From IMG/VR virus record IMGVR_UViG_3300050821_004803, positions 1,113 to 65,112 of that record: a DNA stretch of 64,000 bases; one strand, given 5' to 3'. The notes under the pieces were generated by a model, which was not told the DNA's origin, did not search any database, and saw only the letters and a list, made by a program, of their open reading frames with translations. The translations under genes were made by a program, and so were the position numbers. Positions 5,355 to 58,269 of the stretch are shown piece after piece. Position 1 is the first letter of the stretch, and every line of letters starts with the position of its first letter. Origin of the DNA: a virus (lineage: Duplodnaviria > Caudoviricetes).

Positions 5355-5406
5355 TGATGATTCAATGTCAGTCCTGATGGCGGAAGGTTATTAAAGGAGA
5401 TTTTTT

Positions 5407-5787: not shown

Positions 5788-5788
5788 G

Positions 5789-6099
5789 TTCCCTTCGGGG
5801 AAAGTCGTAACGCCCGGATGCTGCCATGTTGTGGGTCCGACAAAAGCGTTGCGCATTAGATTGAGAACGTGAGCCTGGCTCCATGTTAGAGTATTTTTTC
5901 AGTGAGTTGGAGCTACCAGCCTTCTCGAAGAAATATCTCTAGGCGTTTTCTTTCTAGGGTGCATGGAGAAAGCGCACTTTCGGGTGCCCAACTCTCTAGG
6001 GGCGGATACTAGGCCCGATCAGCCTAGCCTGACAAAGAAAGTTCGTACCTGGCCAACGGAGGTTCTTGCAAAGGGCTTGAATGTCTCCGTTGGTTACCA
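5789..6099 (+). ncRNA. putative structured ncRNA (~310 nt)
   Basis: UUCG hairpins at 5789-5802 and 5974-5987; stem 5887-5900/5927-5941; GGCCAACGGAG/CTCCGTTGGTT stem ending in ACCA. Confidence 0.5.
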
Positions 6100-6114
6100 A
6101 TTTTAGGAGCAAAG

Positions 6115-7169: not shown

Positions 7170-7171
7170 TC

Positions 7172-8671
7172 ATGTTACTAGGAACTCAAGTTCGCCGGGA
7201 ATTTGACAGAGCCTTGATACGGGGAGAGAATGTAATGAATCTTCCTTTGGACTGCACCGAGTCTACTAAACTAAAGTGGTTGGAACGTGCCGATAAGGAC
7301 ATAGAAACAGTTAAATGTCCGATTTTGTCGCAAGGCCGCAGGATAAATAATTTTTGTCTAGGTTCAGATCCGGAATTTGTTTTTGCCCGTGAAGGTGGAA
7401 ATCGGATTGATGCGGCAACGTTGGGATTGAAACCTGGTTTGGCGGCGGGGTGCGATCAAAACCAACGTCTCGCTGAGCTTAGAGGTTGGCCTTCTTCTTC
7501 CGTACTTGAACATGTGGCCGGTATCCTGGCATCGTTGCGCTGGATGTATAGGGTATATCCGGATACTAGAGAATATGCTTGGCGAGCAGGTGGGTGGTAT
7601 TTAACAGATGGTATTGGTGGACACGTACACTTTGGGCGTAAACGACCGACTCGTGATCCAGAAGTAAGGGGTTTGGATGGGCTAGCCTTTGCCTTTCGGG
7701 CAATGGGATTTTTTAACAATGCCGAATGGGACCGACGAAATCGAGGTGACGAACACCGACAGGTGTACGGTTTGTATGGGGATATTCGTCCTCAACTACA
7801 TGGATACGAATATAGAACACTTCCTTCCTGGCTTGATACACCTGCTAAAGCATTTATAGTATTAACAGCTTCTAAGTTGGCGATTCTTGACCCAGAGCTT
7901 CTAAGTTCTTGGCCAACTTCTGTTGTTCTGGCGCCTCAAAAGGGCCAGCAGTTGTTGCGGTATTTGGCACGATATTACGCGGGGCGAGACGACGATGCTT
8001 GGATTTTAAAATACATGTTGCAATCACGCTCCACAACTCTTGAAGCTGCTTTTGATGGGATGAGGTTCAACACTAATTTCAAACCATATTGGGGATTTAG
8101 CCCCCGCAATGACACTATCTCCAAACTCCCTTCCAAAATTTTACCTGCGTGTATCGAACCTTGCGCAAGCGAAATAAAGGAGATAGAAAAAAATCTTTTG
8201 GAGTTCAAACCGCTAACTTTTGTTGAAAATGCCCCAACATTCAAAAACGAAATTCCTAAAAATTATTACTGGCTATACGGGGACGGAATACGGGGTCAAG
8301 GACGAGCAGGAGTGGGTGACTTGTTGCATAACATGGTCGGTCACTCATCTTATACCATAGGTTTTGTCTTTGATGAACGGTTTTCGATAAGTCACGATCT
8401 TTATTCCGAGTGGACTCCGGAAGAGCAAAAAATTGTTATAAAAATGTTTGGAAAGTTCTCAATAAATCGAGGACATTCGAGAGTGATTGTACTACCAAGA
8501 AATTTGACGATTGTTCCTGAAATAGCAAAAACCAGAATTTTCTTTTTAAAGATGGGCCTGTTTCCACTATGGACAGTTGAGACAGTAGAAGAGAAGTCAT
8601 TCCAATCGTGGTTGGCTTCTCGGAAAAAACTTACAAAAACTAAACCTCTTGCAGAGGAAAGGACGCTTTAA
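7172..8671 (+). CDS. phiEco32-like COOH-NH2 ligase, copy 2
   Basis: LGSDPEFV, AELRGWPS, GIGGHVHFG, YGLYGDIRPQLHGYEYRTLPSWL. Confidence 0.88.
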   Translation: MLLGTQVRREFDRALIRGENVMNLPLDCTESTKLKWLERADKDIETVKCPILSQGRRINNFCLGSDPEFVFAREGGNRIDAATLGLKPGLAAGCDQNQRLAELRGWPSSSVLEHVAGILASLRWMYRVYPDTREYAWRAGGWYLTDGIGGHVHFGRKRPTRDPEVRGLDGLAFAFRAMGFFNNAEWDRRNRGDEHRQVYGLYGDIRPQLHGYEYRTLPSWLDTPAKAFIVLTASKLAILDPELLSSWPTSVVLAPQKGQQLLRYLARYYAGRDDDAWILKYMLQSRSTTLEAAFDGMRFNTNFKPYWGFSPRNDTISKLPSKILPACIEPCASEIKEIEKNLLEFKPLTFVENAPTFKNEIPKNYYWLYGDGIRGQGRAGVGDLLHNMVGHSSYTIGFVFDERFSISHDLYSEWTPEEQKIVIKMFGKFSINRGHSRVIVLPRNLTIVPEIAKTRIFFLKMGLFPLWTVETVEEKSFQSWLASRKKLTKTKPLAEERTL

Positions 8672-9724
8672 ATGTGTGGAATTGCTGGAGTTAGAACATA
8701 TGGCAAAGAACCCATAACCGCGGTTGAGTTGAAAATTTTGCTCAACAAACTGGAAAGACGGGGAACCCACGCCACCGGAATTGCGTTGCTGACAGCGGGG
8801 CGTATCCATATTTTGAAAGATGCGGTTCCTGCGTGGTCTTTTACGGCGGCTAAAACCACCGATGCTTTTTTGGATGAGTTTCTTACTCCTGAAACCACAA
8901 TGGCGCTTCTTCATACAAGATTTGCCACAGTTGGACCGCCCCAAAACAACGACAACAACCATCCAATGTTTCGCGGACATTCAGCGGTGGTTCACAACGG
9001 ACATATCAATAACCACACACAGTTGTTTTCCAGTGAGAAAGTAGAGCGTTCCTGCGAAACCGATTCCGATATTATTCGGGGCCTGATAGACAAATACGGA
9101 ATGACGGATAAAGGTTTAGAAAGTCTTCCTAAGCTTTCCGGATCAGCGGCTATTGCAGCTTTCTCGGAGGACGATCCCGAAACATTATTGCTGGCCCGGA
9201 GTGGCTCGCCTTTAACTTATGGGGTGAGCACGGTTACTTACAAGTTATGGTGGGCTTCCGAACTCCCGGCAATTCAAGCAGCAGTAAAACCTTTTGTAAA
9301 TGTTCATGGTTTGTGGGCGCGTGGACCAAGACCGGACGTGGCGTACTTCACTATGCCCGATAACACTGCCTATTTGTTGGGACCAAAGGATCATCTTACC
9401 CGTCGTCCATTTAACAGCTGCACGCACTATCAACAACCCGACTATTCCCGCGTATACGGTGAAACTTACGGCAACCGTATGAGAAGCTTTAGTCGCGAAC
9501 ATCAAAGCACTATTCGAAGGGTGCTTCCTGCGTCGTCTAGTGTTGCAACGGTGGACGGCTTCGGTTTCACCCATAAAATTGCTCCCTGTAACCACTGCCA
9601 TACAGCAAACAAAATTTTAAAAGATGAAAAATTTGCTGATTGGCTCTGCACCAACACCGCATGTCGCAAGCCCCTTGACGAACTGGACAAGATTCCAGTC
9701 GATGAATTAAGATGGAGGAACTAG
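8672..9724 (+). CDS. class II (Ntn) glutamine amidotransferase
   Basis: N-terminal MCGIAG, RGTHATG, HTRFAT, NNHP, HNGHINN, ETDSD; C-terminal Zn ribbon. Confidence 0.92.
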   Translation: MCGIAGVRTYGKEPITAVELKILLNKLERRGTHATGIALLTAGRIHILKDAVPAWSFTAAKTTDAFLDEFLTPETTMALLHTRFATVGPPQNNDNNHPMFRGHSAVVHNGHINNHTQLFSSEKVERSCETDSDIIRGLIDKYGMTDKGLESLPKLSGSAAIAAFSEDDPETLLLARSGSPLTYGVSTVTYKLWWASELPAIQAAVKPFVNVHGLWARGPRPDVAYFTMPDNTAYLLGPKDHLTRRPFNSCTHYQQPDYSRVYGETYGNRMRSFSREHQSTIRRVLPASSSVATVDGFGFTHKIAPCNHCHTANKILKDEKFADWLCTNTACRKPLDELDKIPVDELRWRN

Positions 9725-9725
9725 G

Positions 9726-10478
9726 TTGAATTTTCACATTGCCCGCACAGCCTCTACCACAGGTAATCTTCTTCAAACATTAGTCAATCAACAACTGACC
9801 GGCAACACTGATACTGCACATGTTTGTTATGGGGTGGGTAGACCGGACAATGCGAGAACGTTAAATGCGAATTGTTCAAGATATAGCAAGTTAGAACAAG
9901 CCCGACTTCTTTCAGAGGGGTTAGGGCCTGGGGCCTTGCGTGTATTTGACACCATAGAAGGAGCTGAAAATGCAATTCGAGTCGGTGGTAGTCCCCTGTT
10001 TGCTCGGACTTTTGTGCATTCTAGGGGTCGTGATATCCGTCCAGTTTTGGATGCTTGGCAGTGCCGTCCACTCTTTGAACGAGGGAATGTCTTTTTTACG
10101 GGTTTTGTGCCGTCGAATCGTGAGTTCCGGGTATGGATCTACCGACAGCGACATCTTGGCAGTTATGAAAAGATACTTCGTCGCCCGAACGACTGTCAAC
10201 GTCTCGGAAGAAACCACGATAACGGTTTCGACTTCTCAGGGATCGAGGGTGATGACGTTCCCGAAGGGCTCAAAAATATCTCCAGACAAGCTATTAGAAC
10301 CCTTGGTCTCGACTTCGGGGCCGTTGATGTCCTGCAAGGACTAGATGGGGGCTATGTGGTGCTAGAGGTTAACTCAGCTCCAGGGGTCAGCAACGAGCGT
10401 CGTCGTGTCATCCAAGCTCTTGCACATCGAATTACTCGTTGGGCGGCGAATGGTTGTCCAAATAGAAGGGATGAATAA
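9726..10478 (+). CDS. ATP-grasp ligase (phiEco32/RimK-like C-terminal)
   Basis: REFRVWI, RNHDNGFDF, LGLDFGAVDV, VLEVNSAPG. Confidence 0.9.
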   Translation: MNFHIARTASTTGNLLQTLVNQQLTGNTDTAHVCYGVGRPDNARTLNANCSRYSKLEQARLLSEGLGPGALRVFDTIEGAENAIRVGGSPLFARTFVHSRGRDIRPVLDAWQCRPLFERGNVFFTGFVPSNREFRVWIYRQRHLGSYEKILRRPNDCQRLGRNHDNGFDFSGIEGDDVPEGLKNISRQAIRTLGLDFGAVDVLQGLDGGYVVLEVNSAPGVSNERRRVIQALAHRITRWAANGCPNRRDE

Positions 10479-11030
10479 ATGGCTGGAGTAACCAAACATT
10501 ATGTTTTGTTTTCCGCTGACGGGACTTTTTTGGACGTAAAAGCGCTTCCTCCGTTACAACACCTGATCGAGCGCCTCGCGGGGTTGTCTTTGGTTCGACA
10601 AGAATTTCCAGGTATTGTCCGAGAGGTACGAGCTTTATCGACTTCCCGCTCTTGGAGAAAGCGGCTTATCAAAACTTATGAAGTTTATAAGGTGCTTTGT
10701 ACTGCGACAAAAACCAAAGGCTGGAGACTGGCAGAGTACCGTGTTCGCAAGGGACGAGGACTGGGCAGCCACAGTGCCTTCAAGGCGATAGCCTCCAACT
10801 ATCGGGCTTTTTCCGTGCCAAAGAAAGCGGTAAGGGTTACGTTTGCTGATAACCCAAGAGCCAACCGTTGGACCCTTGACAACCCTTTTAACCCTGAAGA
10901 AGGGGTTCCAGAAGGAAATACCGGAACAGCGCAAACAATAACACCGCTGCCACGACATCTAGAGCCACAATTTAATATACAACGGTATATGTCGAATGTC
11001 CCCAGAACCGGAACAGGTCGCACTCCATGA
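10479..11030 (+). CDS. hypothetical protein
   Basis: Starts immediately after the ATP-grasp stop; 183 aa. Confidence 0.65.
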   Translation: MAGVTKHYVLFSADGTFLDVKALPPLQHLIERLAGLSLVRQEFPGIVREVRALSTSRSWRKRLIKTYEVYKVLCTATKTKGWRLAEYRVRKGRGLGSHSAFKAIASNYRAFSVPKKAVRVTFADNPRANRWTLDNPFNPEEGVPEGNTGTAQTITPLPRHLEPQFNIQRYMSNVPRTGTGRTP

Positions 11031-11383
11031 CAGATCGTTGGGATAGAAGAGTGGATTTCGCTTGCAGCAACGTTCTCAGTTACATCGAATCACGCAAAAT
11101 TGTATGCTGCAAAATACACGGAGCTAACCAACCCTTTTCTCTGGTGCAGGATTCAAGTGGATGGAGAAAAGTCTGCAATCAATGCGTTGAAAATTTCTTC
11201 AAAGAGATTGGGGTGCCGGTAAAACCAGAAGTTGTTGATGTGTGTTTTGAGGATGGCTGCACCAACGATGCTAACCCCGCCGCCCGATGTCTTCTATGCC
11301 AAGAGTTGTTTTGCAATATCCATATGACAGATGATTTTGTTTGTCAATCGTGTACAGAAAAGACCGACAATGGACTTACATGA
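11027..11383 (+). CDS. multi-Zn-finger hypothetical protein
   Basis: CKIH, CNQC, CFEDGC, CLLC, CNIH, CQSC. Confidence 0.65.
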   Translation: MTDRWDRRVDFACSNVLSYIESRKIVCCKIHGANQPFSLVQDSSGWRKVCNQCVENFFKEIGVPVKPEVVDVCFEDGCTNDANPAARCLLCQELFCNIHMTDDFVCQSCTEKTDNGLT

Positions 11384-11942
11384 GGCCCCAGGCCAAACCC
11401 CTCTTATAGGAGAGAATCCGGAAAATGCCCTCTACGAAACGTGGAAAAAAGCTTCTGAAGCTGCGCGTCCACCGATTGAGCAAGCGTTGGTTCCACTTCT
11501 ATATCGTCACGCATCCAAGGTTTGTTGGATGGTTCTTCATTCTAATCAGCCTGATTTAATTGGAACGATTATTAATGATGTGTTTCTTGGAATGAGAAAA
11601 TTTAAGGGGGACAGTCTTTTTTCTACTTGGGTTCACGCTCTTGCACTGTATCGGTGTAGAGCGGAACTTCGAAACATTCGACGCAGGAAAGAGGTAAACG
11701 GGATTGTTGATGGGGGTGTTTCGTATAGTGTGAGGGGTTGTCAAGAAACTTCTAGCGTGGTCCAAAATTTGGTGTCCAAGTTGGGTAAACGAGAACAGGA
11801 ATTGGTTCGATTAAAGATTGATGAAGGTTTATCTGACAAAGAAATAGCGGAAGTTCTTGAGCTTCATCCCGTTTATATTCAAAGACTTTGGAAGGCATTA
11901 CGAAAGCGATTGAGGTCGATGTATGGAAGGAAAGCTTCTTAA
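11370..11942 (+). CDS. ECF-type sigma-70 family RNA polymerase sigma factor
   Basis: Region 2 FKGDSLFSTWVHALA; region 4 HTH LGKREQELVRLKIDEGLSDKEIAEVL. Confidence 0.88.
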   Translation: MDLHEAPGQTPLIGENPENALYETWKKASEAARPPIEQALVPLLYRHASKVCWMVLHSNQPDLIGTIINDVFLGMRKFKGDSLFSTWVHALALYRCRAELRNIRRRKEVNGIVDGGVSYSVRGCQETSSVVQNLVSKLGKREQELVRLKIDEGLSDKEIAEVLELHPVYIQRLWKALRKRLRSMYGRKAS

Positions 11943-12975
11943 TTCGTTTCTGTTGGGTGCAGACCCAGAATTGATTCTTCTTGATCCGCCAGCGTTGATT
12001 AATGGCAGTCGAGAACACAAAGCTGGATATCATTATGGGTACGATCATGGTGGCTATGTAATTGAACCACACCCAAGTCCGAGTTTATCGGCGCGAACCG
12101 TGTGTGCGAATATCAAGAAGTCGTTGGATGTGATTTCCAATCGTTTTCCCTCTTATAGACTTAGAGCAGGAGCTTATTACCGCGACCCGGATCGTAGAGA
12201 TGTCACTCTTGGTGGTCATGTGCATCTTGATCTTCAACATCTTTCTGCCGCCCAGTTGAAAGCAATGGACATTTTTGCAACCTCACTTGAAGCCCTTGAG
12301 ATTCTTCCAAGCAAAGAAAACAAGTTGCGTTGTGGGAGCGGTCATGGATATGGAAAATTGGGGGATATCCGTGCTGAACACGGGCATGTAGAGTACCGAT
12401 CGCTTTGTTCATGGTTGTTTAGTCGAAAAACATCCATGCTCTGTATAACTGGTATTAAGCTGGCTGCGGTGGCTCCGGATACCGTCAAATCTGCGGATTC
12501 TTATACCAAACTTTTGCGCTGGTTCGAAGAATTTAAAGGAAAGGATGATGATGTTGATTGGATTCTGGATCGAGAGTATTTCGCGTCATCTTTGGAAGCC
12601 AAGCCAGACGCTAATGTAAAAGCGGTTTGGAAAGTAGACCCCGATAAAGCAAAGGAGTGGGAACAAGAGGTTGCGACAATGGTTCCAACCAATATAGTTA
12701 ACATGGCCGATCTTGAACGGCGGATGCTAACAGAGGATTATTTCCCTAGTGGAGTGGAGTATGAAGAAATTCGTCGTCGTTCTCGGGAGGGTAGTGAACG
12801 AGCAGCTACTCTATGGAGGTTAATTCATCGTACGGAGATTTTAAGGGCCGCCCGATACGCACAACAACCACTTGCGGCCACAAATAACAATAACATGACC
12901 ACAAATAACAATAACTTTGAAAATTTATTGGGCGGGATTCTACAAAACCCGGATCTATATACCGGTCGTCGTTAA
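11923..12975 (+). CDS. phiEco32-like COOH-NH2 ligase, copy 3
   Basis: LGADPELI, VIEPHPSP, TLGGHVHL, YGKLGDIRAEHGHVEYRSLCSWL. Confidence 0.85.
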   Translation: MEGKLLNSFLLGADPELILLDPPALINGSREHKAGYHYGYDHGGYVIEPHPSPSLSARTVCANIKKSLDVISNRFPSYRLRAGAYYRDPDRRDVTLGGHVHLDLQHLSAAQLKAMDIFATSLEALEILPSKENKLRCGSGHGYGKLGDIRAEHGHVEYRSLCSWLFSRKTSMLCITGIKLAAVAPDTVKSADSYTKLLRWFEEFKGKDDDVDWILDREYFASSLEAKPDANVKAVWKVDPDKAKEWEQEVATMVPTNIVNMADLERRMLTEDYFPSGVEYEEIRRRSREGSERAATLWRLIHRTEILRAARYAQQPLAATNNNNMTTNNNNFENLLGGILQNPDLYTGRR

Positions 12976-13324: not shown

Positions 13325-14080
13325 TTGGCTCTCGCGGTATTAAGATTGGTATTTGATCGTTCTCTCCTCACATTTGATGCCGCCCGGCATCGACATCTCT
13401 ATGACGGTAAACAACTTATTGGTGTAACAACAGCCCTGGGGATGATATCTAAAGGGGATGCGATAACACAATGGGCGGTCAATCAATCACTCGAATTTTT
13501 GACAAATGCATTCGCGCAAGAGGGGGAATATGCGCCTGAGGAAATTCAGGCCTTCTTACTACAAGCTAAATATGCCTGGCGAGCTAAGCGTGATGAAGCA
13601 GCTGATATAGGCACTCAAGCCCACAACTGGATCGAATCTTATTTAAAAGGGGAGAACCCTGATCTTATTTGGCCAAAACATCCCGCTGTACGTAAATCTT
13701 GTGAAGCAGCAGTTAAATGGACGGAGGCCCATCATTGGCAAACAATTGAAATCGAGAAGCAAGTCTACCATCCAAAACTTGGGTACGCTGGAATTCTCGA
13801 CTGGTGGGTTTTCATTGATGGTGTACCCTCCATTCCAGACTGGAAAACTTCCAAAGCTATTTACAGCACCCATCGGTACCAAACTGCAGCCTATCTTAAA
13901 GCGGTTGAACTTGAAACCAGAGAATATATTCGTAACCGCTGGGTCTTGCGAATTGATAAATCTACTGGAGAGTTTGAAGATGTTAAGTTACAACGAGGTA
14001 CCTTAGCCGATGACTGGCGTTGTTTCAAAGCAGCCCTTGCATTATATAAACGTGAAAAGCAGTTAAAAGAGGAGAAGTAA
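13325..14080 (+). CDS. PD-(D/E)xK exonuclease-like protein
   Basis: GTQAHNWIE, EKQV, YAGILD, DWKTS, YQTAAY. Confidence 0.88.
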   Translation: MALAVLRLVFDRSLLTFDAARHRHLYDGKQLIGVTTALGMISKGDAITQWAVNQSLEFLTNAFAQEGEYAPEEIQAFLLQAKYAWRAKRDEAADIGTQAHNWIESYLKGENPDLIWPKHPAVRKSCEAAVKWTEAHHWQTIEIEKQVYHPKLGYAGILDWWVFIDGVPSIPDWKTSKAIYSTHRYQTAAYLKAVELETREYIRNRWVLRIDKSTGEFEDVKLQRGTLADDWRCFKAALALYKREKQLKEEK

Positions 14081-14307
14081 TGTCCCTAGAAAATCGTGAA
14101 TACGAAGTCGAATTGACTGTAACCAGGCATCATCTTTTTACCACGTTTTCTCGTTCTCCGGAGGAGGCTATTGCGGACGCAGAAAATATGTTAGAAGACG
14201 GCGATAATGGGGAAATTGTAGTAACTGAAATTGAAGTTGCTGACGCCTACCCTACTGATGAGCTTTCTTCCGAGGATGATGAGGAGATGGATGACGATAC
14301 CGACTAA
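14080..14307 (+). CDS. small acidic hypothetical protein
   Basis: TAATG coupling; AGGAG RBS; D/E-rich tail. Confidence 0.7.
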   Translation: MSLENREYEVELTVTRHHLFTTFSRSPEEAIADAENMLEDGDNGEIVVTEIEVADAYPTDELSSEDDEEMDDDTD

Positions 14308-15085
14308 TCCTGTACGTATTGGAGGGGTTGGGCCTGGGGTTATTGAATATAAACGAGTTAGCCAAGAACCCCCTAAACGTCTTGTCCTTTCTGTTGATAG
14401 TCCTCCAAAATGGGGTAAAACTCATTTCTGTTTGACCGCTCCAGATCCCATAGCCGTTCATAACCTCGATCTTGGCCTAGAGGGAGTGGTTGAGGCGGAA
14501 GAATTCAAGAGCAAAGAAATCTATGTCTTTGACTATCAAATTCCTATGTCCGCTACACTACCCGGCTCAGAATTTTCGGGAATGGCCGATGCTGCTCAGA
14601 AAGTCTGGAAGGAGTATGTACGCAATTTCCGAGATTCTCTGTCGAAAATGCGGACGGTTGTGGTGGATACAGGGTCGGAGGCGTGGCAACTTGTACGATT
14701 GGCTCGTCTGGGTAAACTCACCTCCGTACTTCCGGTACAATATACAGCAGTCAATGCGGAGTTCCGACAACTTACTCAGATCGCTTTGTCGCAAAACGTC
14801 TGTAATGTTATCTTTACTCACAAGGTAAAGGATGTATATAAGGATGACAAGAAAACGGGCGAGGTAGAGCGAGCGGGTTTTGGAGAAATAGAATACGATG
14901 TTCAAACTGTTCTTAAGGCTTCTAGGGACTACGCAAAGACCGGAGTTGACCAGTTTGGATTGGAGATCGCAGCATGTCGCGCCAATTTATCGGCCACCGG
15001 AAAGAGATTTGTTGGAGCAGATTGCACCTTTGCTAAGGTTGCCGCAGCAATCTATCCGTCCACAACCGAAGAAACCTGGAAATAA
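14291..15085 (+). CDS. AAA_24/Sak4-like P-loop ATPase (recombination/annealing)
   Basis: Walker A SPPKWGKT, Walker B VVVDT, VIFTH; lies next to the nuclease and SSB-like genes. Confidence 0.78.
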   Translation: MTIPTNPVRIGGVGPGVIEYKRVSQEPPKRLVLSVDSPPKWGKTHFCLTAPDPIAVHNLDLGLEGVVEAEEFKSKEIYVFDYQIPMSATLPGSEFSGMADAAQKVWKEYVRNFRDSLSKMRTVVVDTGSEAWQLVRLARLGKLTSVLPVQYTAVNAEFRQLTQIALSQNVCNVIFTHKVKDVYKDDKKTGEVERAGFGEIEYDVQTVLKASRDYAKTGVDQFGLEIAACRANLSATGKRFVGADCTFAKVAAAIYPSTTEETWK

Positions 15086-15098
15086 TTTCATTTTTTAG

Positions 15099-15129
15099 GT
15101 TGTATTAGTACCCATTTTGGATACTAATA
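15099..15129 (+). promoter_or_regulatory. putative phage-sigma promoter GTTGTA-N15-GATACTAATA
   Basis: Same bipartite motif and spacing at 56204-56234(-) and 58239-58269(-); this copy also forms the palindrome TGTATTAGTA/TACTAATACA. Confidence 0.75.
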
Positions 15130-15134
15130 CACAC

Positions 15135-15340
15135 AATCAACAGGAGACAAAGGGTTGTACCTGAGTTGAACGTTGATGGTCAACCTAAAGGGGTTAGAGC
15201 CTGGGTTGGTTGTGCGATAGAACCGGGAAGTCCTTGAAAATATCGGGAACTCCGTTCTGAGGGGTTCGGACCCGTGCCTGGCGAGGCTCCCAAGGTTCTC
15301 CTATCCAACAACCACCCAAGTTTCTAACCCCTTTATTTGT
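15135..15340 (+). ncRNA. putative rod-shaped ncRNA containing the complement of the dispersed motif
   Basis: 13-bp perfect closing stem 15186-15198/15323-15335 plus nested stems; no ORF; upstream promoter motif; contains AAGGGGTT-AGA-GCCTGG and GAGGGGTT-N9-GCCTGG. Confidence 0.7.
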
Positions 15341-15631
15341 TTGGAGATAGCTTTGGAGAATTTTATTATGAATACGATTATAGTCGTTATAATGCTATCA
15401 TCCTGGCATCTCCACCGGCACGCTCAACTACCTCCAGTTGAAGTACCCCCCACCATTGAGCAACAAAGAGAAGACTATGCCCAAGCACTGGGAGGATGTT
15501 CGTATCAAGACGGAATTTATTTCTTCTCTGGTAAAGATAAAGAAATAGGTATGTCTGATAAATCCTGCGGTGAGGCATATGAAGACTGGCGACATCGCAA
15601 TACACCAGCCGTTGTTATGAGCAGAGTTTAG
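15341..15631 (+). CDS. small membrane-anchored/secreted hypothetical protein
   Basis: Hydrophobic N-terminus (likely start 15368); two Cys. Confidence 0.55.
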   Translation: MEIALENFIMNTIIVVIMLSSWHLHRHAQLPPVEVPPTIEQQREDYAQALGGCSYQDGIYFFSGKDKEIGMSDKSCGEAYEDWRHRNTPAVVMSRV

Positions 15632-15638
15632 AGGTTCA

Positions 15639-15917
15639 ATGTACAGAACCAATCGCAGTATTTTGAAAGAAATTTTACTTGAGGTGAAAAATTTGTCAGC
15701 AACTATTGTAACTCGTGCAGCTTTCGATGCGGCTCTTACGGCTGCAGTAACCACCATTCAGACCGCCATCAGCGACCTGCAGGCCAAGATTGCTGCGGGC
15801 GGAGTAACGACTCCAGAAGATTTTACAGCGGAACTTACTACGCTTCAGGGACTCGTTAGTACGGCGACTGCTGCGGACCCCGGTCCACAGGCCGCTTCCA
15901 CAACGTCCGGCAGCTAA
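15639..15917 (+). CDS. Ala/Thr-rich helical hypothetical protein
   Basis: GAGG RBS; coiled-coil-like composition. Confidence 0.6.
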   Translation: MYRTNRSILKEILLEVKNLSATIVTRAAFDAALTAAVTTIQTAISDLQAKIAAGGVTTPEDFTAELTTLQGLVSTATAADPGPQAASTTSGS

Positions 15918-15983
15918 CTAAACTCCAAAGCTTTTATCCGATGAGCTTTATCAACGGAATATTGAACTAATTGGGAGCGCTCA

Positions 15984-16403
15984 TTGTCAGGAACAGCATG
16001 GACTGAAGTAGATTTATCAACAATACCCACAGATAATGCAATTATTCCGGAAGGTAAGTATACGTTTGAACTTCTTCCCGGAGCACGCTATTCAAAGTGG
16101 GATGCAGGACGTATTGAATTTGCAGGAAAGGTTTCGGGTGGCGAGTTTCCTAATAAGGTGATTTACTCTAGCTACCCCGATCCTGAAAAGGTAGGAAATT
16201 GGGTTCACGGAGTTTTCGTTCGTATGCAAAACGCTGCAGGTGAAGGCTATGAAATTGAACCCAACGAAGATCCGGTTGCTTATTTAAATCGTGTTGCTGG
16301 TATTCATTTTGTTGCAAAGGTACTTCATCGTACTTACGACAAAGATGGAGAAAGCGTCACCAAGGAAGACCTGAAAATTGGTAGCATTTCGCCAGTTAAG
16401 TAA
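15984..16403 (+). CDS. putative ssDNA-binding protein (DUF669-like)
   Basis: IPEGKY N-terminal motif, beta-rich, follows the nuclease and Sak4-like ATPase. Confidence 0.6.
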   Translation: MSGTAWTEVDLSTIPTDNAIIPEGKYTFELLPGARYSKWDAGRIEFAGKVSGGEFPNKVIYSSYPDPEKVGNWVHGVFVRMQNAAGEGYEIEPNEDPVAYLNRVAGIHFVAKVLHRTYDKDGESVTKEDLKIGSISPVK

Positions 16404-16424
16404 AGAACTGTGGATGATGACTTT

Positions 16425-16448
16425 GGGCACCTCCGGGTGCCCTTAGTT
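16425..16448 (+). terminator. GC hairpin, probable terminator
   Basis: GGGCACC-TCCG-GGTGCCC followed by TTAGTT. Confidence 0.45.
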
Positions 16449-16463
16449 ATAGGAGAGTGGTTT

Positions 16464-16574
16464 ATGTTGGATCATATTGGATGGGTCATTTGTTTCGTTA
16501 TTGTTGTAGTTGCGATTTTTTGTAGCAAAGGACGGTTTCCTGACGATGACGATCCCCAACACCCAGCCTGTTGA
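16464..16574 (+). CDS. 36-aa single-TM peptide (not in ORF track)
   Basis: AGGAG RBS; MLDHIGWVICFVIVVVAIFCSKGRFPDDDDPQHPAC. Confidence 0.5.
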   Translation: MLDHIGWVICFVIVVVAIFCSKGRFPDDDDPQHPAC

Positions 16575-16693
16575 ATGCGACTGTCAGTGTCATAAATTGC
16601 GTGGCCACAACCAAGTAACGTTTTGTGGTTTTTGTTGGACTTGTCACACCTATCGCGATAAACGCGGATTAATTAAATTAAGGGAGCCTACAG

Positions 16694-16825
16694 ATGCCGT
16701 TGAAGACAGGCAAGAGTCAGAAAGTAGTTAGTGAAAACATAAAAACCGAGATGGGTGCAGGACGACCGCAGAAACAAGCGGTGGCAATTGCGCTCAGTAA
16801 AGCTGGAAAGAGTAATAAAAAGTGA
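16694..16825 (+). CDS. conserved small basic phage protein (not in ORF track)
   Basis: [43 protein letters not shown] matches the widespread QKQAVAIAL phage peptide; GGGAG RBS; GTGA overlap with the next gene. Confidence 0.8.
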
Positions 16826-17469
16826 AAGTAGTTTGCATATCCGATACTCATGACGTTCACTATCCAGAACTTCCGGAAGGGGATATGCTGATTCACGCTG
16901 GGGACGTTTCTTTAAACGGAAGTCCCCAAGAAATTACGAGATTTTTAGATTGGTTTGAAAAACAACCTCATCGACATAAAATTTTTGTAGGTGGTAATCA
17001 CGACCGTTCGTTGGAGCAATACGGATGGGGATTTTTCGAGCGAAAAGGCATTACGTACCTCGAAAACTCCTCCACAAAAATTGAAGGTTTTAAAATATTT
17101 GGTTCTCCTGCCTCTCGTACCTTTGGTCACATCTGCGCTTTTATGCGAGAGGAAGAAGCCCTACGAAGACTTTGGCTGGGTCTTGATGGCACTCACGATA
17201 TAGTTATCACCCACAGTCCGGCCAAGTGGTTTAGAGATTCTGAAGCCGATGGTGTGCCTCTGGGCAGTGAATCGCTAGCAGAATTTCTTCGATACGCCAA
17301 TCCCTTACTCCACGTATGCGGACACATACACGGCGGATACGGACAAACGGAGCACAAAGGAACTCAGTACGTAAACGCATCGCACCTGGATGTTACGTAC
17401 CGAAAGTTCAATGCTCCTATTGTAGTAGACCTAGAAGATATAAAGAAAAAAATAAACTCCAGGCCCTAA
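16822..17469 (+). CDS. calcineurin-like metallophosphoesterase (239FB-like)
   Basis: SDTH, HAGD, GGNHD, ITHSP, CGHIH. Confidence 0.92.
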
Positions 17470-19883
17470 CCCCTCTGGGAGCCAACCTGAAAGTTTGTGA
17501 AATAGCGGCTTGTGCTGGGTGTCCGCTAAGAAAGAAAAATCCAGATGCTATATTTGTTCCTCCTCGTGTTGGCAGTAATCTTCGTTTGGAGATTGGTGAC
17601 TACCCAGGACGTGTCGCTGCAGAGCTTGGACATCCCCTTGGTGGTGGCTCCGGTGGCTGGCTCACGTCGATGTATTCTAAAGCCGGTCTTGAAGAAAAAG
17701 AAAACTCTGTCCTAAACGTAATTCAATGTAAACAACCCGAAGAGGAGTTTCCGAAAAATGAGCATGAGGCCATCGAGCACTGCCGAAAAGCCCACGTGGA
17801 ACCCTTCCTTGCATCCAAACCTTGGACTCGTGTTGATGTGTTTGGAGAATATCCGCTCAAATATATTCTCCAAAAGAATCTTGAAATCTCTAGATGGCGT
17901 GGAACTATTTTATCCGTACCAGCTCTCGACAATTCAAAGATTGCTATTCCTACCTTCCATCCTAGATATATCGCCAAAGATCAAGCCATGTTCCCGGTGG
18001 CGATTAATGATCTACGGAAAACGCTCACCGTTGAACCAGAATATTATAACATTTATCCCTCCCTCAACGATGTCAGACAATTTCGATCAACCCGCTTTGC
18101 TTTTGACATTGAAACAAATGGATGGACAAAAGAGATCAACATTGTTGGACTTTGTTCAGAAGATTATAGGGTAATAGTTGTACCATTTATCGGAGAGTAT
18201 GTTGACGAGTTACGACGCATATTTGCAAACGCCACAGAAGTCATTGGTCAGAATCTGGTTCAGTTTGACTTACCTGTGTTGGCTCACAATGGCATTTATA
18301 TTCGTGGCCCTGAAGAGTGTGTGGTATGGGATACGATGCTTATGCATCATCTACGCTTCCCAGTATTCCCCCACGATCTTGAGTTCATTGGCAAACAATT
18401 TACGAACAAAGGCGCATGGAAAGCCGATAAAGTTTCTTTCGAAACATATTGCGCGAGAGACGTTGATGTCACCTGGCGATCCTTTCATCCGCTTAAAGAA
18501 CTTTTGGTTCAAGCCGGTCTCTTAGATAACTATAAATATATCAGTTGGCCGCTGGCTAAAATTTGCAAATTGATGACCGATATAGGTTTATCCCGATCAT
18601 TCAATCGAATTGCTAAACTTCGGGATGAGCTACACGAAATTATCAAAGTACAAGAGGGGTTATTGCCTGGGCATCTTAGAACTTTTACTAAGTATGTAAA
18701 CAAGCGAAAACCGGCTCCCGAAGGTACAGTCAACGAAAAAGGCAGACTAGTTAAGTATATTTATGAGCCGGTAGCGGAGGTTGAGGTTCCTTGGCGGTCG
18801 TCGGCTGTCAAAATGAAATTCCTCTATGAGGAGCTTCGGGACGCTAAGGGTAAAAAGCTTGAAGTGGTTAAACACATCAAGACGAAACAACCCACAACCG
18901 ACAAAAATGCCCTTGACAAGTTGTATGTTCGTCATAAACTACCGGAACTTCGGGCACTTAAAGAGCTTCAACGCTGTGCCACACTGTTGCAGGGTTTTGC
19001 TAAAGAGGACTTAAAAGTAAACGATGTCTTACACCCATCTTTCAACCCCCACGGAACAGAAACAGGACGTCTTAGTTCGAGTGGTCCTAACATTCAGAAC
19101 CAGCCAAGCGCTGTGCGATATTCTTACGTCCCAAGAAATGCCGGAGGAAAGATTGTCTCGGTTGATTACTCGGGCATTGAAAACCGACTCGTTGCGGATT
19201 TTGCGAGAGATCGAAAACGTAGAGAGTGGTTCAAAGACATCAATTTCTCTGAACATAAATACCTAGCGGCTCTTATTGAAGGAATTGCTTATGAAGAAGT
19301 CGTCAAATCCAAGGACAAAGATTCTCCTTATGCAATGGCGAAAGTCATTGTCCACGGGTCTGACCGTCTCATGGGTGCTAAGAAAATTGCCGCCCAATAT
19401 GACCTTGACATTGATCGAGTAAAAGATTTTCAAGCAATTTGGAAGAGAGAAATCTCGGATACTATTGCTTGGCAATCCCGAGTAGGAGCAGAGGCTGCTA
19501 GGATCGGCTGGCTCTCTAACCCCTTCGGGCGTAAGTTGTGGTTGTGGGAAAGCAATTCAATAACTAAGGCGGTGTCGTTTATGCCTCAGTCCACAGCTGC
19601 TGATGTTATCTTTCGGGCTATGATTGCGCTTATGTATGAGCGCATTGGATGGCCAAAAGAGTGGGCATTAAAGATTGCACCGTACGTGGAATCGTTGCCT
19701 GAAGGGGTCCTACTGCTGGCCCAGGTACACGACGAATTGTTGTGTGAAACCGAAAATGCAGATCAAGTAAATCCTACACTAGAGGTTCTGGAACGGGTGA
19801 TGACGCAACCCTGGCCAGAGTTAAACGGGTTGTCCCTTCCTATAGGGAAGGCGTCAGGTGATTCTTGGGGAGATTGTGAATGA
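17316..19883 (+). CDS. polA: family A DNA polymerase with N-terminal UDG-like domain and 3'-5' exonuclease
   Basis: UDG-like CAGC, GDYPG, NVIQC, PTFHP; Exo DIET, NLVQFD, YCARD; Pol TGRLSS, DYSGIE, QSTAAD, VHDE. True start probably near 17487. Confidence 0.93.
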   Translation: MRTHTRRIRTNGAQRNSVRKRIAPGCYVPKVQCSYCSRPRRYKEKNKLQALTPLGANLKVCEIAACAGCPLRKKNPDAIFVPPRVGSNLRLEIGDYPGRVAAELGHPLGGGSGGWLTSMYSKAGLEEKENSVLNVIQCKQPEEEFPKNEHEAIEHCRKAHVEPFLASKPWTRVDVFGEYPLKYILQKNLEISRWRGTILSVPALDNSKIAIPTFHPRYIAKDQAMFPVAINDLRKTLTVEPEYYNIYPSLNDVRQFRSTRFAFDIETNGWTKEINIVGLCSEDYRVIVVPFIGEYVDELRRIFANATEVIGQNLVQFDLPVLAHNGIYIRGPEECVVWDTMLMHHLRFPVFPHDLEFIGKQFTNKGAWKADKVSFETYCARDVDVTWRSFHPLKELLVQAGLLDNYKYISWPLAKICKLMTDIGLSRSFNRIAKLRDELHEIIKVQEGLLPGHLRTFTKYVNKRKPAPEGTVNEKGRLVKYIYEPVAEVEVPWRSSAVKMKFLYEELRDAKGKKLEVVKHIKTKQPTTDKNALDKLYVRHKLPELRALKELQRCATLLQGFAKEDLKVNDVLHPSFNPHGTETGRLSSSGPNIQNQPSAVRYSYVPRNAGGKIVSVDYSGIENRLVADFARDRKRREWFKDINFSEHKYLAALIEGIAYEEVVKSKDKDSPYAMAKVIVHGSDRLMGAKKIAAQYDLDIDRVKDFQAIWKREISDTIAWQSRVGAEAARIGWLSNPFGRKLWLWESNSITKAVSFMPQSTAADVIFRAMIALMYERIGWPKEWALKIAPYVESLPEGVLLLAQVHDELLCETENADQVNPTLEVLERVMTQPWPELNGLSLPIGKASGDSWGDCE

Positions 19884-20182: not shown

Positions 20183-21330
20183 TGGACCTCAACATCCCGG
20201 ATTGTCTACCGCATGATAGTTGGTTCCGACGTTGGATGGATATATGGCCCACGTCGGAATCACCTAAGCCATTTATTTTATTCTCTGCGATGGCGATGTT
20301 TGGGGCTTGTTTAGGAAGACGAGTTTGGTTGGATCAAGACATACATCAGGTTAGGCCAATGCTTAATGTGCTGTTGATTGGTCCCTCGGGAATTGGCAAG
20401 AGTACCGCTGTAAAAATTGCCAAACGTCTTCTTCCATACGTACCAGAAAGCCATCGTGCCCAGTTTATTGAGGGTGGGTCTACAAAAGAAAAGCTCCATC
20501 AGGATTTGCTAGATCAACCAAAAGCAATCTTATTTGCGCAAGAACTGGCAGCATTCTTTTCCAAAGAAAAATATAAGGAAAACCTGATACCATATGTCAC
20601 TAATCTTCTCGACTATGAAGACGTTATTGAACTTAGAACTCGTCGAGATGGTACTAGCCGTGTTATTGAACCTAGCGTTTCTATCATTGGTGGCTCTACA
20701 CTGGAGTGGTTGCAAAATATGCTTCCTGATAGCGCTGTCAGCGGCGGTTTTCTTGCACGTTTCCTTATTCTTAACGAGGATTCTAAGGGACAGAAAATTG
20801 CGAATCCTCATCGCTTGTTGTCAAGCCGTTCTAAGGCAGCACTCGAAGTAACTCGCAACAAAGTCTACTCGGACTTCTCCGATCTCTTCACAGTCCACGA
20901 AGGCAATATGGACTACGAAGATTACGAAGCTGCTGAAACCTATGCAAAGTGGTATAACGCCTATCAACCCGAAACTGGATATCTTGCTCCGTTCGCTGCA
21001 AGAGCTGGAGAGCTTATCCTCCGCTTGTCGATGCTCCTTGCTATATCATCCAGACGAACTACCATCTCAGCGACAGACATTACTAGCGGTATTGCGCTCT
21101 ACGCTTACGTTGCAAGCCGCCTTGGGCGAGTTGTTGTAGCGACTAATGTGCAGGGTAAGGTCGGTGAATTGGTCAGAAGTACGGTTAGTGGAGAGGGGTT
21201 GGGGCCTGGCTCTATTGTGGGCTTGCTCCGAGTTCAAGCTCCATATTCTGATATCGAAAAACACTTAGAGGGACTTATATACTCTGGATCTCTAACTAAC
21301 GAAGAAGGAAAGATCAGACATTCCGAATGA
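20182..21330 (+). CDS. DUF3987/YfjI-like P-loop NTPase, putative replicative helicase
   Basis: GPSGIGKST, ELAAF, SIIGGST, GGFLARF; position after the polymerase; no primase domain visible. Confidence 0.75.
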   Translation: MDLNIPDCLPHDSWFRRWMDIWPTSESPKPFILFSAMAMFGACLGRRVWLDQDIHQVRPMLNVLLIGPSGIGKSTAVKIAKRLLPYVPESHRAQFIEGGSTKEKLHQDLLDQPKAILFAQELAAFFSKEKYKENLIPYVTNLLDYEDVIELRTRRDGTSRVIEPSVSIIGGSTLEWLQNMLPDSAVSGGFLARFLILNEDSKGQKIANPHRLLSSRSKAALEVTRNKVYSDFSDLFTVHEGNMDYEDYEAAETYAKWYNAYQPETGYLAPFAARAGELILRLSMLLAISSRRTTISATDITSGIALYAYVASRLGRVVVATNVQGKVGELVRSTVSGEGLGPGSIVGLLRVQAPYSDIEKHLEGLIYSGSLTNEEGKIRHSE

Positions 21331-21381
21331 CGCAGGGCATTAAGATTACCCCCAGGCCAAACCCCTCAGAAGGATAAACTT

Positions 21382-22161: not shown

Positions 22162-22552
22162 AAGACCACCCTTGACGGTGGCTATTGATTTTGATGGTAC
22201 TCTTTGTGATGCTTGCTTTCCGGATATTGGTACAATAAAAGAGGGGGCACGTGAAGCGCTTCAGTTCTTTAAGGATTTGGGCTATCGTATCATTATTTAC
22301 TCGTGTCGTACTTGCCATTGGCACCACGACATATTCGGTGGCAGTGTTGATGAACCCTCAATGGAACGGACAACAGTTAGGCAAATGGTTGCTTGGCTGG
22401 ATTCCAATGGTCTGCCTTATGATTTGGTGGATGATGGTAGCCGAGGAAAGGTTGTCGCCGATTACTACATAGATGACAAAGCTATACGATTTGACAATAA
22501 CTGGCCAGAGATTCAGTTTTTTGTAGGGGTGTCCCATGCCGCTTCCAACTGA
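22151..22552 (+). CDS. HAD-superfamily hydrolase
   Basis: AIDFDGTL, IYSCR, K.VADYYIDDKA. Confidence 0.85.
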   Translation: MESKRPPLTVAIDFDGTLCDACFPDIGTIKEGAREALQFFKDLGYRIIIYSCRTCHWHHDIFGGSVDEPSMERTTVRQMVAWLDSNGLPYDLVDDGSRGKVVADYYIDDKAIRFDNNWPEIQFFVGVSHAASN

Positions 22553-22901
22553 TCCAAAGGATCGAAAGAAAACCCCTCTTTGGTCTGGGTTAGTTAAATA
22601 TTTTCCAGATGCCCTTATTGCGGTATCTCAAGTATCCTACGCTGGAAATGAACAACATAACCCAGGCGAACCTCTTCACTGGGCGCGAGGGAAATCAATG
22701 GATCAAGAAGATACTTTGCTTCGTCATCTATGGGAAAGTGGGACAGTGGATATTGATGGACACAGACACTCAGCAAAAGTTGCTTGGCGCGCCCTTGCCA
22801 TGCTCCAACTGGAAATCGAACGAACCAGCGTTCCAGACGCAACCGGAACTAGTGAAGACCTGTCCCAGATGCTACTCCCTTTTGATGGAAAGTCGCTGTA
22901 A
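22536..22901 (+). CDS. dATP/dGTP diphosphohydrolase-like protein (DUF5664-like)
   Basis: FPDALIAVSQVS..GNEQHNPGEPLHW..KS....LLRH...H.AKVAWRALA pattern. Confidence 0.78.
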   Translation: MPLPTDPKDRKKTPLWSGLVKYFPDALIAVSQVSYAGNEQHNPGEPLHWARGKSMDQEDTLLRHLWESGTVDIDGHRHSAKVAWRALAMLQLEIERTSVPDATGTSEDLSQMLLPFDGKSL

Positions 22902-23305: not shown

Positions 23306-23320
23306 GAGGGGTTTGGCCTG

Positions 23321-56203: not shown

Positions 56204-56234
56204 TATTAGTATCCACAAGGGCCGTAAATACAAC
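56204..56234 (-). promoter_or_regulatory. putative phage late promoter GTTGTA-N15-GATACTAATA
   Basis: Points into the terS-terL-portal operon; same boxes as 15099 and 58239. Confidence 0.75.
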
Positions 56235-58238: not shown

Positions 58239-58269
58239 TATTAGTATCCACAAAGCCGTCCAGTACAAC
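58239..58269 (-). promoter_or_regulatory. putative phage-sigma promoter GTTGTA-N15-GATACTAATA
   Basis: Head of the whole minus-strand gene block. Confidence 0.75.

Follow-up and report, generated by a model that had tools for sequence, protein, structure and literature searches.

The window analysed here is a 64,000-nt stretch (bases 1113-65112) of the 65,112-bp phage record IMGVR_UViG_3300050821_004803, for which CheckV gives a completeness of 100%. Directly behind a gene for a Sak4-like ATPase it contains a small RNA of about 205-210 nt, and two loops of the predicted fold carry, in order, the two halves of a short motif that is dispersed over the phage DNA in about 30 exact copies. The best explanation is a trans-acting small RNA of a new family, so far found in a small clade of phiEco32/SU10-like soil podoviruses. 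Relatives were found by a polymerase scan, a scan with a Sak4 alignment and a two-copy DNA pattern, which together yielded three further carriers of the RNA; a single-sequence Sak4 scan found no relative. The four genomes are:

G000: the complete record containing the window, 65,112 bp
L005 (= G001): relative, complete genome of 64,907 bp with terminal repeats
L027: relative, metagenome contig of 37 kb
L153: relative, viral contig of 6.1 kb, 39% GC

The features of the locus, in window coordinates, are:

13325..14080, plus strand: RecB/Cas4-type exonuclease gene (phrog_298, E = 7e-33), syntenic in G001, L027 and L153
14231..15085, plus strand: Sak4-like ATPase/annealase gene (phrog_124, E = 1.4e-5, its single PHROG match)
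15099..15129, plus strand: RNA promoter GTTGTA-N15-GATACTAATA, reading GTAtta-(15)-aCTAATA
15133..15342, plus strand: predicted primary transcript, its start set from the promoter and its end from the U-tract after the rod
15150..15327, strand and true ends not given by the contigs: span of the metatranscriptome contigs, which sets a lower limit to the length of the RNA
15984..16403, plus strand: DUF669-like (SSB-like) gene, which in all four genomes is the conserved gene that follows the RNA most closely

The RNA is seen in soil metatranscriptomes. Each of three runs (three study codes) contains a contig that covers the RNA element only:

X1: 15177-15327, depth 178; contigs of downstream genes 2.2-4.6
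X2: 15151-15327, depth 13.7; contigs of downstream genes 2.4
X3: 15150-15325, depth 4.95; downstream genes uncovered

Where neighbouring genes are covered at all (X1, X2), the depth of the RNA is 6-40 times theirs, and no contig in the three runs covers the Sak4 gene (14300-15080). Contaminating DNA would not produce this pattern of the RNA element alone at high depth. The small RNA is a real, discrete and abundant transcript with its own transcription unit, as a sequence-only reading of this DNA had anticipated. That reading had also raised the possibility of a processed 3' end just after GCCUGG, which did not hold: the contigs of all three runs continue to 15325-15327, about 10-15 nt short of the U-tract, and this shared stop is at most a weak hint of processing there. 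Three features lead us to assign the RNA to the plus strand, namely its promoter, the U-tract that follows the rod and G-U pairs found within conserved helices; in addition, the plus strand folds better in all four homologues.

The promoter motif GTTGTA-N15-GATACTAATA, picked out in the sequence-only reading, occurs three times in the window against 0.00 expected. The two other copies are:

56204..56234, minus strand: before the structural-gene operon; G001 has the same class before the homologous gene
58239..58269, minus strand: before the ORF (open reading frame) 56721-57971

The relatives have the same promoter class, each with a -35 box of its own and with one copy before the RNA: GTGGGTAAAA-N13-CGTCTAATA in G001 (four copies), GTGAGTCAAAA...CGTCTAATA in L027 (two copies) and GGTACACAAAA...GGTACTAATA in L153 (two copies). 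A generic sigma-70 scan did not list the RNA promoter. Since the same class also precedes the structural operon, the RNA promoter is probably read by the ECF-like sigma factor of the phage, which would make the RNA a late-class transcript. In PMC8948821, the late promoters of the phiEco32-like phage 7-11 are given as GTAAtg-(16)-aCTA, read by a phage sigma factor, with transcription starting 6-9 bp downstream. The promoters described here resemble these (GTAtta-(15)-aCTAATA in the window, GTAAAA-(15/16)-tCTAATA in G001) and are present in only 3-4 copies per genome, one of them before the structural genes. They differ in that the sigma-like ORF in the window (11331-11942) scores below the Pfam cut-offs, with sub-threshold ECF-sigma hits. 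The relatives share the -10 box CTAATA, whereas every phage has its own version of the -35 box, which looks like co-evolution with the sigma factor. In L027, a second promoter-like box, ACTAATGTATAG, lies at 6085-6105 between the RNA and the DUF669-like gene and is close to the single-element phiEco32 consensus tAATGTAtA quoted in PMC8948821.

Folding of 15130-15345 gives, for the plus strand, a long rod behind a 5' hairpin (-85.9 kcal/mol, z = -4.77; none of 200 shuffles is as stable) and, for the minus strand, a weaker fold (-80.0 kcal/mol, z = -3.96). A repeat search finds the rod arms as 35 nt at 83% complementarity (15186-15220 / 15301-15335). The helices drawn by eye in the earlier reading stand where they had been placed. 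The RNA of L005 folds with z = -5.19, and four separate minimum free energy (MFE) folds (window, L005, L027 and L153) predict the same architecture. In the window its parts are, all on the plus strand:

15136..15177: 5' hairpin H1 of the MFE folds; sequence not conserved, each homologue having one or two hairpins here
15186..15220: rod 5' arm P1/P2, holding motif copy 1, mostly base-paired
15188-15204: motif copy 1, AAAGGGGTT-AGA-GCCTGG, its left half differing by a single mismatch from GAGGGGTT as found elsewhere
15232..15254: 5' strands of the apical domain, namely P3 (15232-36), J5 AAAAUAU (15237-43), P4 CGGG (15244-47), bulge AAC (15248-50) and P5 UCCG (15251-54)
15255..15266: apical loop UUCUGAGGGGUU, in which the left motif half GAGGGGUU (15259-15266) is invariant in all four RNAs
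15267..15274: first 8 nt of the 9-nt long spacer (15267-15275), forming the 3' strands of P5 (CGGA) and P4 (CCCG), with standard pairs in all four
15275..15281: 3' side of the internal loop, U-GCCUGG, the right motif half, invariant in all four, P(unpaired) 0.94
15282..15342: 3' strands of P3 (15282-86), P2 and P1 (to 15335), then the U-rich tail UUUAUUUGUUU

Just two unpaired stretches are invariant in all four RNAs, and they are the two motif halves in order: GAGGGGUU, within the apical loop, and UGCCUGG, in the 3' strand of the internal loop. The apical loop has 12-14 nt and ends in (C/A)(U/A)GAGGGGUU; the internal loop measures 7-9 by 7-9 nt, with an A/U-rich 5' side. The 9-11 nt between the invariant stretches are most of the 3' strands of P5 and P4, and only the last 1-3 of them (U; UGU in L027) are unpaired, the ninth spacer nucleotide of the window, U15275, opening J3. 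The split motif had been noted before, as GAGGGGTT at 15259-15266 and GCCTGG at 15276-15281 with 9 nt between them, as had the pairing of CGGG (15244-15247) with CCCG (15271-15274). Both are present, and the pairing of the spacer with the sequence upstream co-varies across the four homologues, in which the spacer is 9-11 nt long. In thermodynamic ensembles of the four RNAs, P(unpaired) is 0.94/0.98/0.61/0.96 for GCCUGG and 0.51/0.60/0.35/0.62 for GAGGGGUU; these values predict exposure of the right half and partial exposure of the left.

In a hand alignment by coordinates, P3, P4 and P5 consist of standard pairs in all four RNAs, and 9 of 12 compared pairs have changed on both sides. In a model-fitted alignment, 89.4% of cells pair compared with 72.5% after shuffling, 7 of 12 pairs are double-changed (reached by 0 of 500 shuffles) and the co-variation score is 0.625, against at most 0.194 for slid-partner controls; P3 is partly out of register in this alignment, which lowers the P3 counts. 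These two alignments were used because whole-RNA MAFFT alignments were poor in the 3' arm. With four sequences, the compensatory changes are suggestive of a conserved RNA structure rather than statistical proof of one. A covariance model of the apical domain (R1) recovered the four RNAs and one duplicate locus, and nothing further, among 24 sources totalling 355,846 nt. The features by which we propose to define the family (the locus, the compensated helices, and the invariant GAGGGGUU and UGCCUGG loops) are shared by the RNAs of the window, L005, L027 and L153.

The size, rod shape, abundance and internal loop of this RNA recall 6S RNA, and J5 has a partial likeness to the -10 box, so that a 6S-like RNA could bind RNA polymerase carrying the phage sigma factor, with the A/U-rich side of the internal loop (UAAUAAAU in L005 and L027) mimicking the melted -10 box CTAATA. 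We regard such a role as very improbable. No 6S model matches at E up to 10 (window 14900-15700) or up to 5 (L153, L027, L164), the internal loop lies in the apical third of the rod rather than in its centre, the likeness of J5 is weak in the window and in L153, and the link to the dispersed motif would be left unexplained.

The fold also bears on the idea that the promoter and structured region act in cis as a replication origin, the transcript serving as an R-loop primer and the stable RNA being a by-product. R-loop primers have precedents in T4 oriF/oriG and in ColE1. The location among replication and recombination genes in all four genomes, the strong promoter of the region's own and the two motif copies within 100 bp would suit an origin. 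The cumulative GC skew, however, has no turn at 15.2 kb and tracks gene direction, the G-U pairs and co-variation indicate selection on an RNA fold, and the identity of the loops with the dispersed motif would go unaccounted for; we consider a cis element very unlikely.

Besides the split copy, the RNA holds a second motif copy of normal spacing, copy 1, which the sequence-only reading had placed correctly in the 5' arm, although its left half starts AAAGGGGTT and is one mismatch off GAGGGGTT. A normal-spacer copy occupies this position in all four homologues. In the thermodynamic ensemble its left half has a P(unpaired) of 0.00 and its right half one of 0.18, and the 3' arm forms no perfect motif on the other DNA strand in any of the four. 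A variant contig in X3 differs at 15185 and 15203. Its G15203T disrupts GCCTGG in copy 1, and the 3' arm has not changed to compensate; the depth of this contig is below 5 and the variant may be an error.

In the phage DNA, the pattern AGGGGTT-N1-12-GCCTGG has 32 matches in the window against 0.02 expected, and GGGGTT-N0-12-GCCTGG has 34 matches in the 65,112-bp record against 0 for a reversed control. Of these 34, only the split copy in the RNA has a spacer of more than 3 nt (9 nt), so its description as the sole long-spacer copy was correct. Counted as GAGGGGTT plus GCCTGG, the window has 30 perfect sites, 3 with one mismatch and 3 with two, and G001 has 21, 1 and 3. The 30 perfect (a/g)GAGGGGTT-N1-3-GCCTGG copies outside the split copy lie between 1330 and 63050 on both strands:

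Sites 1-8: 1330-1344 minus, 5161-5175 plus, 5324-5338 minus, 9916-9931 plus, 11388-11402 minus, 14323-14337 plus, 17459-17474 minus, 18655-18670 plus
Sites 9-16: 21194-21209 plus, 21352-21366 minus, 23307-23321 plus, 24553-24567 minus, 29091-29105 plus, 30284-30299 plus, 31572-31586 minus, 32740-32755 plus
Sites 17-23: 37248-37263 minus, 41386-41400 plus, 45677-45691 plus, 46435-46450 minus, 49144-49159 minus, 49327-49341 plus, 53021-53035 plus
Sites 24-30: 54838-54852 minus, 56405-56419 plus, 58433-58448 minus, 58461-58474 plus, 61179-61192 minus, 62475-62490 minus, 63036-63050 plus

The halves are constant and the spacer is free in sequence, with a length of 1-3 nt (mostly 2-3) in the window, 4 nt in G001 and L027, and 4-5 nt in L153. 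Normal and long spacers track each other loosely (2-3/9 in the window, then 4/11, 4/11 and, in L153, 4/10); a strict rule that the long spacer equals the normal one plus 7 held in three genomes and failed in L153 (10 vs 4). Matches per genome number 34 in G000, 22 in G001, 6 in 10.7 kb of L027 and 4 in the 6.1 kb of L153; the 7.3-kb fragment G002, which does not reach the RNA locus, has 5. RNA and motif co-occur in all four genomes, the three relatives that cover the locus all keeping both segments in their RNAs, and neither was found when the loci of 13 more distant relatives were searched. No other contig in IMG/VR carries the exact motif. A candidate for a different dispersed motif in the distant relative L021 was rejected: its repeated 9-mers are all on one strand and look like codon bias.

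The window sites (16 on the plus strand and 14 on the minus strand) are unrelated to gene direction (10 same and 13 opposite within ORFs) and are spread more evenly than by chance, the largest gap being 4592 nt against a random median of 7954 (P = 0.002; the same test in G001 gives P = 0.13). They are enriched between genes: 7 of 30 fall in the 5.8% of the window outside ORFs (P = 0.0014), and in G001 10 of 21 lie outside ORFs (P = 2e-6). Motif copies inside genes arise by substitution rather than insertion, as in the polymerase gene and in a real GGACT gene that holds two copies. Site positions are mostly not conserved between relatives, which implies that sites turn over. One site is kept in position in three genomes (window 23307-23321, G001 20707-20722, L004 6988-7001); in the window and G001 this motif ends in the G with which the GTG start codon of the tyrosine integrase gene begins, so that its GAGGGG may double as a ribosome-binding site.

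This distribution bears on an antisense role, in which the loops would pair with CCAGGC-N-AACCCCUC in phage mRNAs wherever the motif is antisense to a gene, often 15-70 nt upstream of the start codon. The effect would be regulation of translation or cleavage by RNase III/E at gene junctions, and inverted motif pairs would form this duplex in cis. The enrichment at junctions is as such a role would have it, all six antisense sites of the plus-strand gene block lie just upstream of a gene start, inverted pairs form perfect stems of 20-27 bp, and the apical loop resembles an antisense recognition loop. In three of the four RNAs CUGA directly precedes GGGGUU, which presumably fits the YUNR U-turn of such loops. 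The near-even orientation, however, would leave about half of the perfect sites without a role, and several sites lie deep inside genes. Antisense control of phage mRNAs is therefore, in our judgement, rather unlikely.

Some sites are arranged as inverted pairs, convergent or divergent, in the window (5159-5340, 21194-21366, 49141-49344, 58433-58474), in G001 (26763-26829, 42603-42719, 44579-44740, 49556-49660), in L153 (4944-5030) and also in L027. They form perfect stems of about 17-27 bp around unrelated interiors of 12-170 nt, and the two sites of a pair have identical or almost identical spacers, although the spacer is free elsewhere. Such pairs (5159/5340 and 21194/21366 in the window, four in G001, and those of L027 and L153), together with the roughly 40-fold drop in depth after the rod, could mean that the rod is simply one of several inverted motif pairs, acting as a terminator or attenuator or being a transcribed REPIN/MITE-like palindrome with no function in trans. 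The interiors of the other pairs are unrelated and not conserved, however, and one pair lies inside the real GGACT gene, whereas here the interior structure and loops are conserved although the Sak4 proteins are only 46-48% identical; in addition, no Y1 transposase was found in G000 or G001, and the gene after the RNA is not conserved. We give this explanation little chance.

The DNA sites conserve more than the RNA loops contain. Sites in G001 keep further flanks (tGGGAGGGGTT...GCCTGGTG) that the loops lack, so base pairing alone cannot specify the sites and recognition must be at least partly by protein. This favours the view that the RNA is a protein decoy or mimic: an abundant late RNA would offer the motif double-stranded in P1 and single-stranded in its loops and would titrate, load or release a motif-binding protein. 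The principle is familiar from TFIIIA, which binds both the 5S gene and 5S RNA, and from 6S RNA, which binds RNA polymerase. Both motif copies sit at fixed positions in all four RNAs, copy 1 and the unmatched flanks are handled better by a decoy than by pairing, and the high abundance of the RNA suits titration. An all-or-none dispersed motif (34 invariant and 3 one-mismatch copies) is also described for Cluster O mycobacteriophages with no RNA invoked in the available part of PMC4351075. On the other side, no candidate protein was found, the 416-aa ORF 56721-57971 behind the third promoter copy (58239-58269, minus strand) having no homologue in G001; the RNA would have to imitate DNA, and double-stranded RNA is a poor mimic of the B form; the pairing of the right half of copy 1 varies among homologues (CC bulge, CU/UC mismatch, fully paired); and copy 1 is broken by G15203T in one variant contig. 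A decoy seems to us unlikely on balance, though it is the main alternative to our preferred reading.

Our best reading, which is tentative and leaves the function unproven, is that the two loops pair in bipartite fashion with the DNA strand complementary to the motif. The RNA had been described as carrying the split complement of the motif; what the plus-strand RNA holds, however, is the motif, and its complement is found in just one of the two DNA strands of each site, the one opposite the motif. To that extent the description stands. Every site has one such strand, so DNA pairing would explain both function in either orientation and the need for perfect sites. In the mechanism we propose, a site that has become single-stranded or has been unwound would offer its complementary strand to both loops for pairing, the 1-5 nt of the DNA spacer would bridge the bulged helix P4/P5 of about 7-9 bp that separates the loops, and the conserved DNA flanks missing from the RNA would be read by a protein partner. 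Because the RNA gene lies inside the exonuclease/Sak4/DUF669-SSB recombination module in all four genomes, and because this machinery makes single strands, the module would be the likeliest user of the RNA, which might tag phage DNA or act on it at points no more than about 4.6 kb apart in the course of recombination-dependent replication or of break repair. We favour pairing because it explains why the loops are the motif halves and why the sites are exact, orientation-free and evenly spread, and because it fits the antisense-like loop; RNA-DNA pairing, guiding and priming are all things that we infer.

Several observations weigh against pairing with DNA: (i) The geometry is awkward, with the loops at opposite ends of a helix of about 8-9 bp and spacers of 2-3 nt at most window sites. 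(ii) Copy 1 is conserved yet buried in P1, for which pairing gives no reason. (iii) The DNA flanks (tGG upstream in G001, L027 and L153; TG downstream) are conserved and unmatched by the loops. (iv) RNA loops and motif are both invariant in the four genomes, which leaves no matched sequence changes to compare. (v) The metatranscriptome contigs do not give the strand or ends of the RNA. (vi) Reverse transcriptase (PF00078), IS110 recombinase (PF01548, in a search that did find control genomes), TnpB (PF07282, at E <= 0.01) and Y1 transposase (PF01797) are found in neither of the two complete genomes, G000 and G001. (vii) A scan of about 70 ORFs gave no Cas- or Argonaute-like hit and no effector. 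The antisense, cis-origin, 6S-like and terminator or palindrome explanations each leave part of the evidence unexplained.

In a scan of prokaryotes with one genome per species, at least 120 matches were listed, nearly all of them single chance hits. A host-wide motif signal was not supported among the matches listed, in which only L065, an Acidobacteriaceae metagenome-assembled genome, has three full sites. These are the only copies in that 3.9-Mb genome, all within 5 kb and 2-3 kb apart, and they belong to a small integrative element (L065, L151, L152; contig C7 of G004, about 32-40 kb) with a tyrosine integrase, an AAA_25 protein and a serine recombinase. The element has no copy of the RNA and no clear homology to the phage, and the double pattern of the RNA occurs in 0 of 401 genomes of the family. 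The element gives no more than a hint of the host group and of a satellite-like element sharing the signature. In a more speculative form of the pairing reading, which we hold to be improbable, the ~30 exact, evenly spaced sites would be a self signature read by the RNA and not by protein alone: an RNA-specified, Chi-like signal would stop resection and start recombination or replication on phage DNA only, the loops pairing as exonuclease, Sak4 and DUF669 expose the strand, and the Acidobacteriaceae element would carry the signature to pass as phage DNA.

The genes around the RNA are ordered alike in all four genomes (small ORF, exonuclease, small ORF, Sak4-like ATPase, RNA, DUF669-like gene). 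Homologues of the Sak4-like protein with 46-48% identity are encoded directly upstream of the RNA in G001, L027 and L153, and the DUF669-like proteins are 42-50% identical in alignment; some of the genomes have inserts between the RNA and the DUF669-like gene, and the gene directly after the RNA is not conserved. The earlier placement of the RNA between Sak4-like and SSB-like genes thus holds in all four genomes, the labels themselves resting on the PHROG match at E = 1.4e-5 and on a likeness to DUF669 in the protein Atlas. The latter is a lead only (feature score 0.94-0.95, TM 0.72 to DUF669 clusters); the protein has no Pfam or PHROG match, and a profile of it found no solved relative. The region was also said to be ORF-free, but two trivial minus-strand ORFs of 41-43 aa overlap it. 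The likely start of the Sak4-like gene is near 14342, right after the motif site 14323-14337. In G001, tRNA genes flank the RNA gene and an ORF for an HNH/AP2-type endonuclease follows it directly (L005 6548-6620, 6917-7780); homing endonuclease genes often adjoin conserved genes. A DUF669 SSB and an AAA recombinase form a published phage recombination-repair pair, the Healer module (PMC13687109). The present RNA gene likewise sits between a Sak4-like AAA gene and a DUF669-like gene, with the differences that the abstract of PMC13687109 mentions no RNA component and that the DUF669 label here is an Atlas lead only.

By gene content the phage is placed as a distant, uncultivated phiEco32/SU10-like podovirus from soil. 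It encodes an SU10/P22-type portal and a large terminase; the window encodes a family-A DNA polymerase, a primase and a tyrosine integrase, as well as three phiEco32-like COOH-NH2 ligases, a glutamine amidotransferase, an ATP-grasp protein and a GGACT protein. The genes of this ligase, amidotransferase, ATP-grasp and GGACT set are clustered (2968-12975, 22536-22901) with one for a protein with a dATP/dGTP diphosphohydrolase N-terminal domain, and the combination points to chemistry that modifies bases or nucleotides. No deposited phage has a polymerase more than 25% identical to this one, and blastn of 14000-17000 against the reference phage collection gave no match. A further protein, g21382, looked at as a possible partner, resembles a metallophosphoesterase. 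About 30 tandem copies of the hexamer GGTCTG (63823-64000) reach the very end of the record; the only other tandem repeats in the window are short arrays at 43610 and 48643.

Among known RNAs, Rfam gave no gathering-score match in the window, and none of its families, 6S among them, accounts for the RNA. Lax Rfam scans returned only a chance miRNA-like hit at the promoter palindrome in the window, and tRNAs or hairpin-type miRNA hits elsewhere in the relatives; ARAGORN found no tRNA or tmRNA (transfer-messenger RNA) in the window. The RNA shares with 6S RNA its abundance, its ~200-nt rod with an internal loop and possibly its late expression, and differs in that the Rfam 6S models (RF00013 and related) are unmatched and that the internal loop is not central. 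To our knowledge, 6S RNAs do not carry loop sequences equal to a dispersed DNA motif. The reverse transcriptase that adjoins a retron RNA (PF00078) and the TnpB/Cas12f-like nuclease of OMEGA/TnpB reRNAs (PF07282) are found in 0 of 2 genomes. REP/REPIN or MITE elements do not fit either: the Y1 transposase (PF01797) is likewise found in 0 of 2 genomes, the pair interiors are unrelated and the motif in the polymerase gene arose by substitution. No CRISPR array or repeat-mimic is present in the window, where motif copies lie from 29 to 4593 nt apart. For phi29 pRNA, Rfam is unmatched, the portal is of the SU10/P22 type and the genome has 65 kb.

The closest parallels in design are IS110 bridge RNA and the box H/ACA guide RNAs, which hold bipartite guides in loops of a structured RNA. 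As in these, a structured RNA of ~180-200 nt has two unpaired segments, separated by a helix, that could specify one short target with few unpaired bases between. Here, however, an apical loop holds one segment and one strand of an internal loop holds the other, instead of both facing each other in a single loop, and bridge RNA differs further in that an IS110 recombinase is found in 0 of 2 genomes and that there are ~30 targets in the phage's own genome with no donor/target pair. The literature on phage 6S mimics, dispersed phage repeats, phiEco32 transcription and Sak4/DUF669 yielded no RNA carrying a dispersed phage motif, which is not proof that none has been published. Of the guide-RNA and rod-RNA families considered, none fits this RNA in the defining features that were tested; we therefore rate the combination of RNA and genome signature as new in kind, with its function inferred. 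Should the RNA read the DNA motif, the virus would recognise its own genome through an RNA in a novel way, and would do so with none of the known families of guide-dependent enzymes. Should it be a decoy, this would be a case of a phage RNA imitating DNA sites. In both cases an RNA of ~200 nt, three small proteins and a 16-nt oligonucleotide would allow a test of what dispersed phage motifs do, and the RNA family is new to Rfam 15.

The DNA sites have parallels of their own. Chi sites are short signals of 5-8 nt, host-wide and read by protein alone. The motif resembles them in being short, exact, evenly spread in both orientations and readable on single-stranded DNA by recombination enzymes, and its RNA gene lies beside an exonuclease and a recombinase; it differs in having 14-19 specified bases and in being confined, among the matches listed, to a phage clade and one integrative element. 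That some phages, such as the Cluster O mycobacteriophages, have dozens of exact short motifs dispersed over their genomes has been known for years without explanation. The Cluster O genomes have a dispersed 17-bp repeat, 5'-TGTTCGGNNNCCGAACA, in more than 30 copies each, whose function is unexplained in the available part of PMC4351075; T4-type PeSL cassettes provide a second example of dispersed phage motifs. Like the motif described here, the Cluster O repeat is nearly always perfect (34 invariant copies and 3 with one change), has a free central spacer and lies between genes or near gene ends; in contrast, it is a palindrome with a fixed 3-bp spacer, and that part of PMC4351075 mentions no RNA carrying it. 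The present motif is asymmetric, its spacer varies from 1 to 5 nt and its halves recur in the loops of an abundant RNA. This links a dispersed motif to a molecule amenable to synthesis and experiment, a structurally conserved small RNA encoded inside a recombination module.

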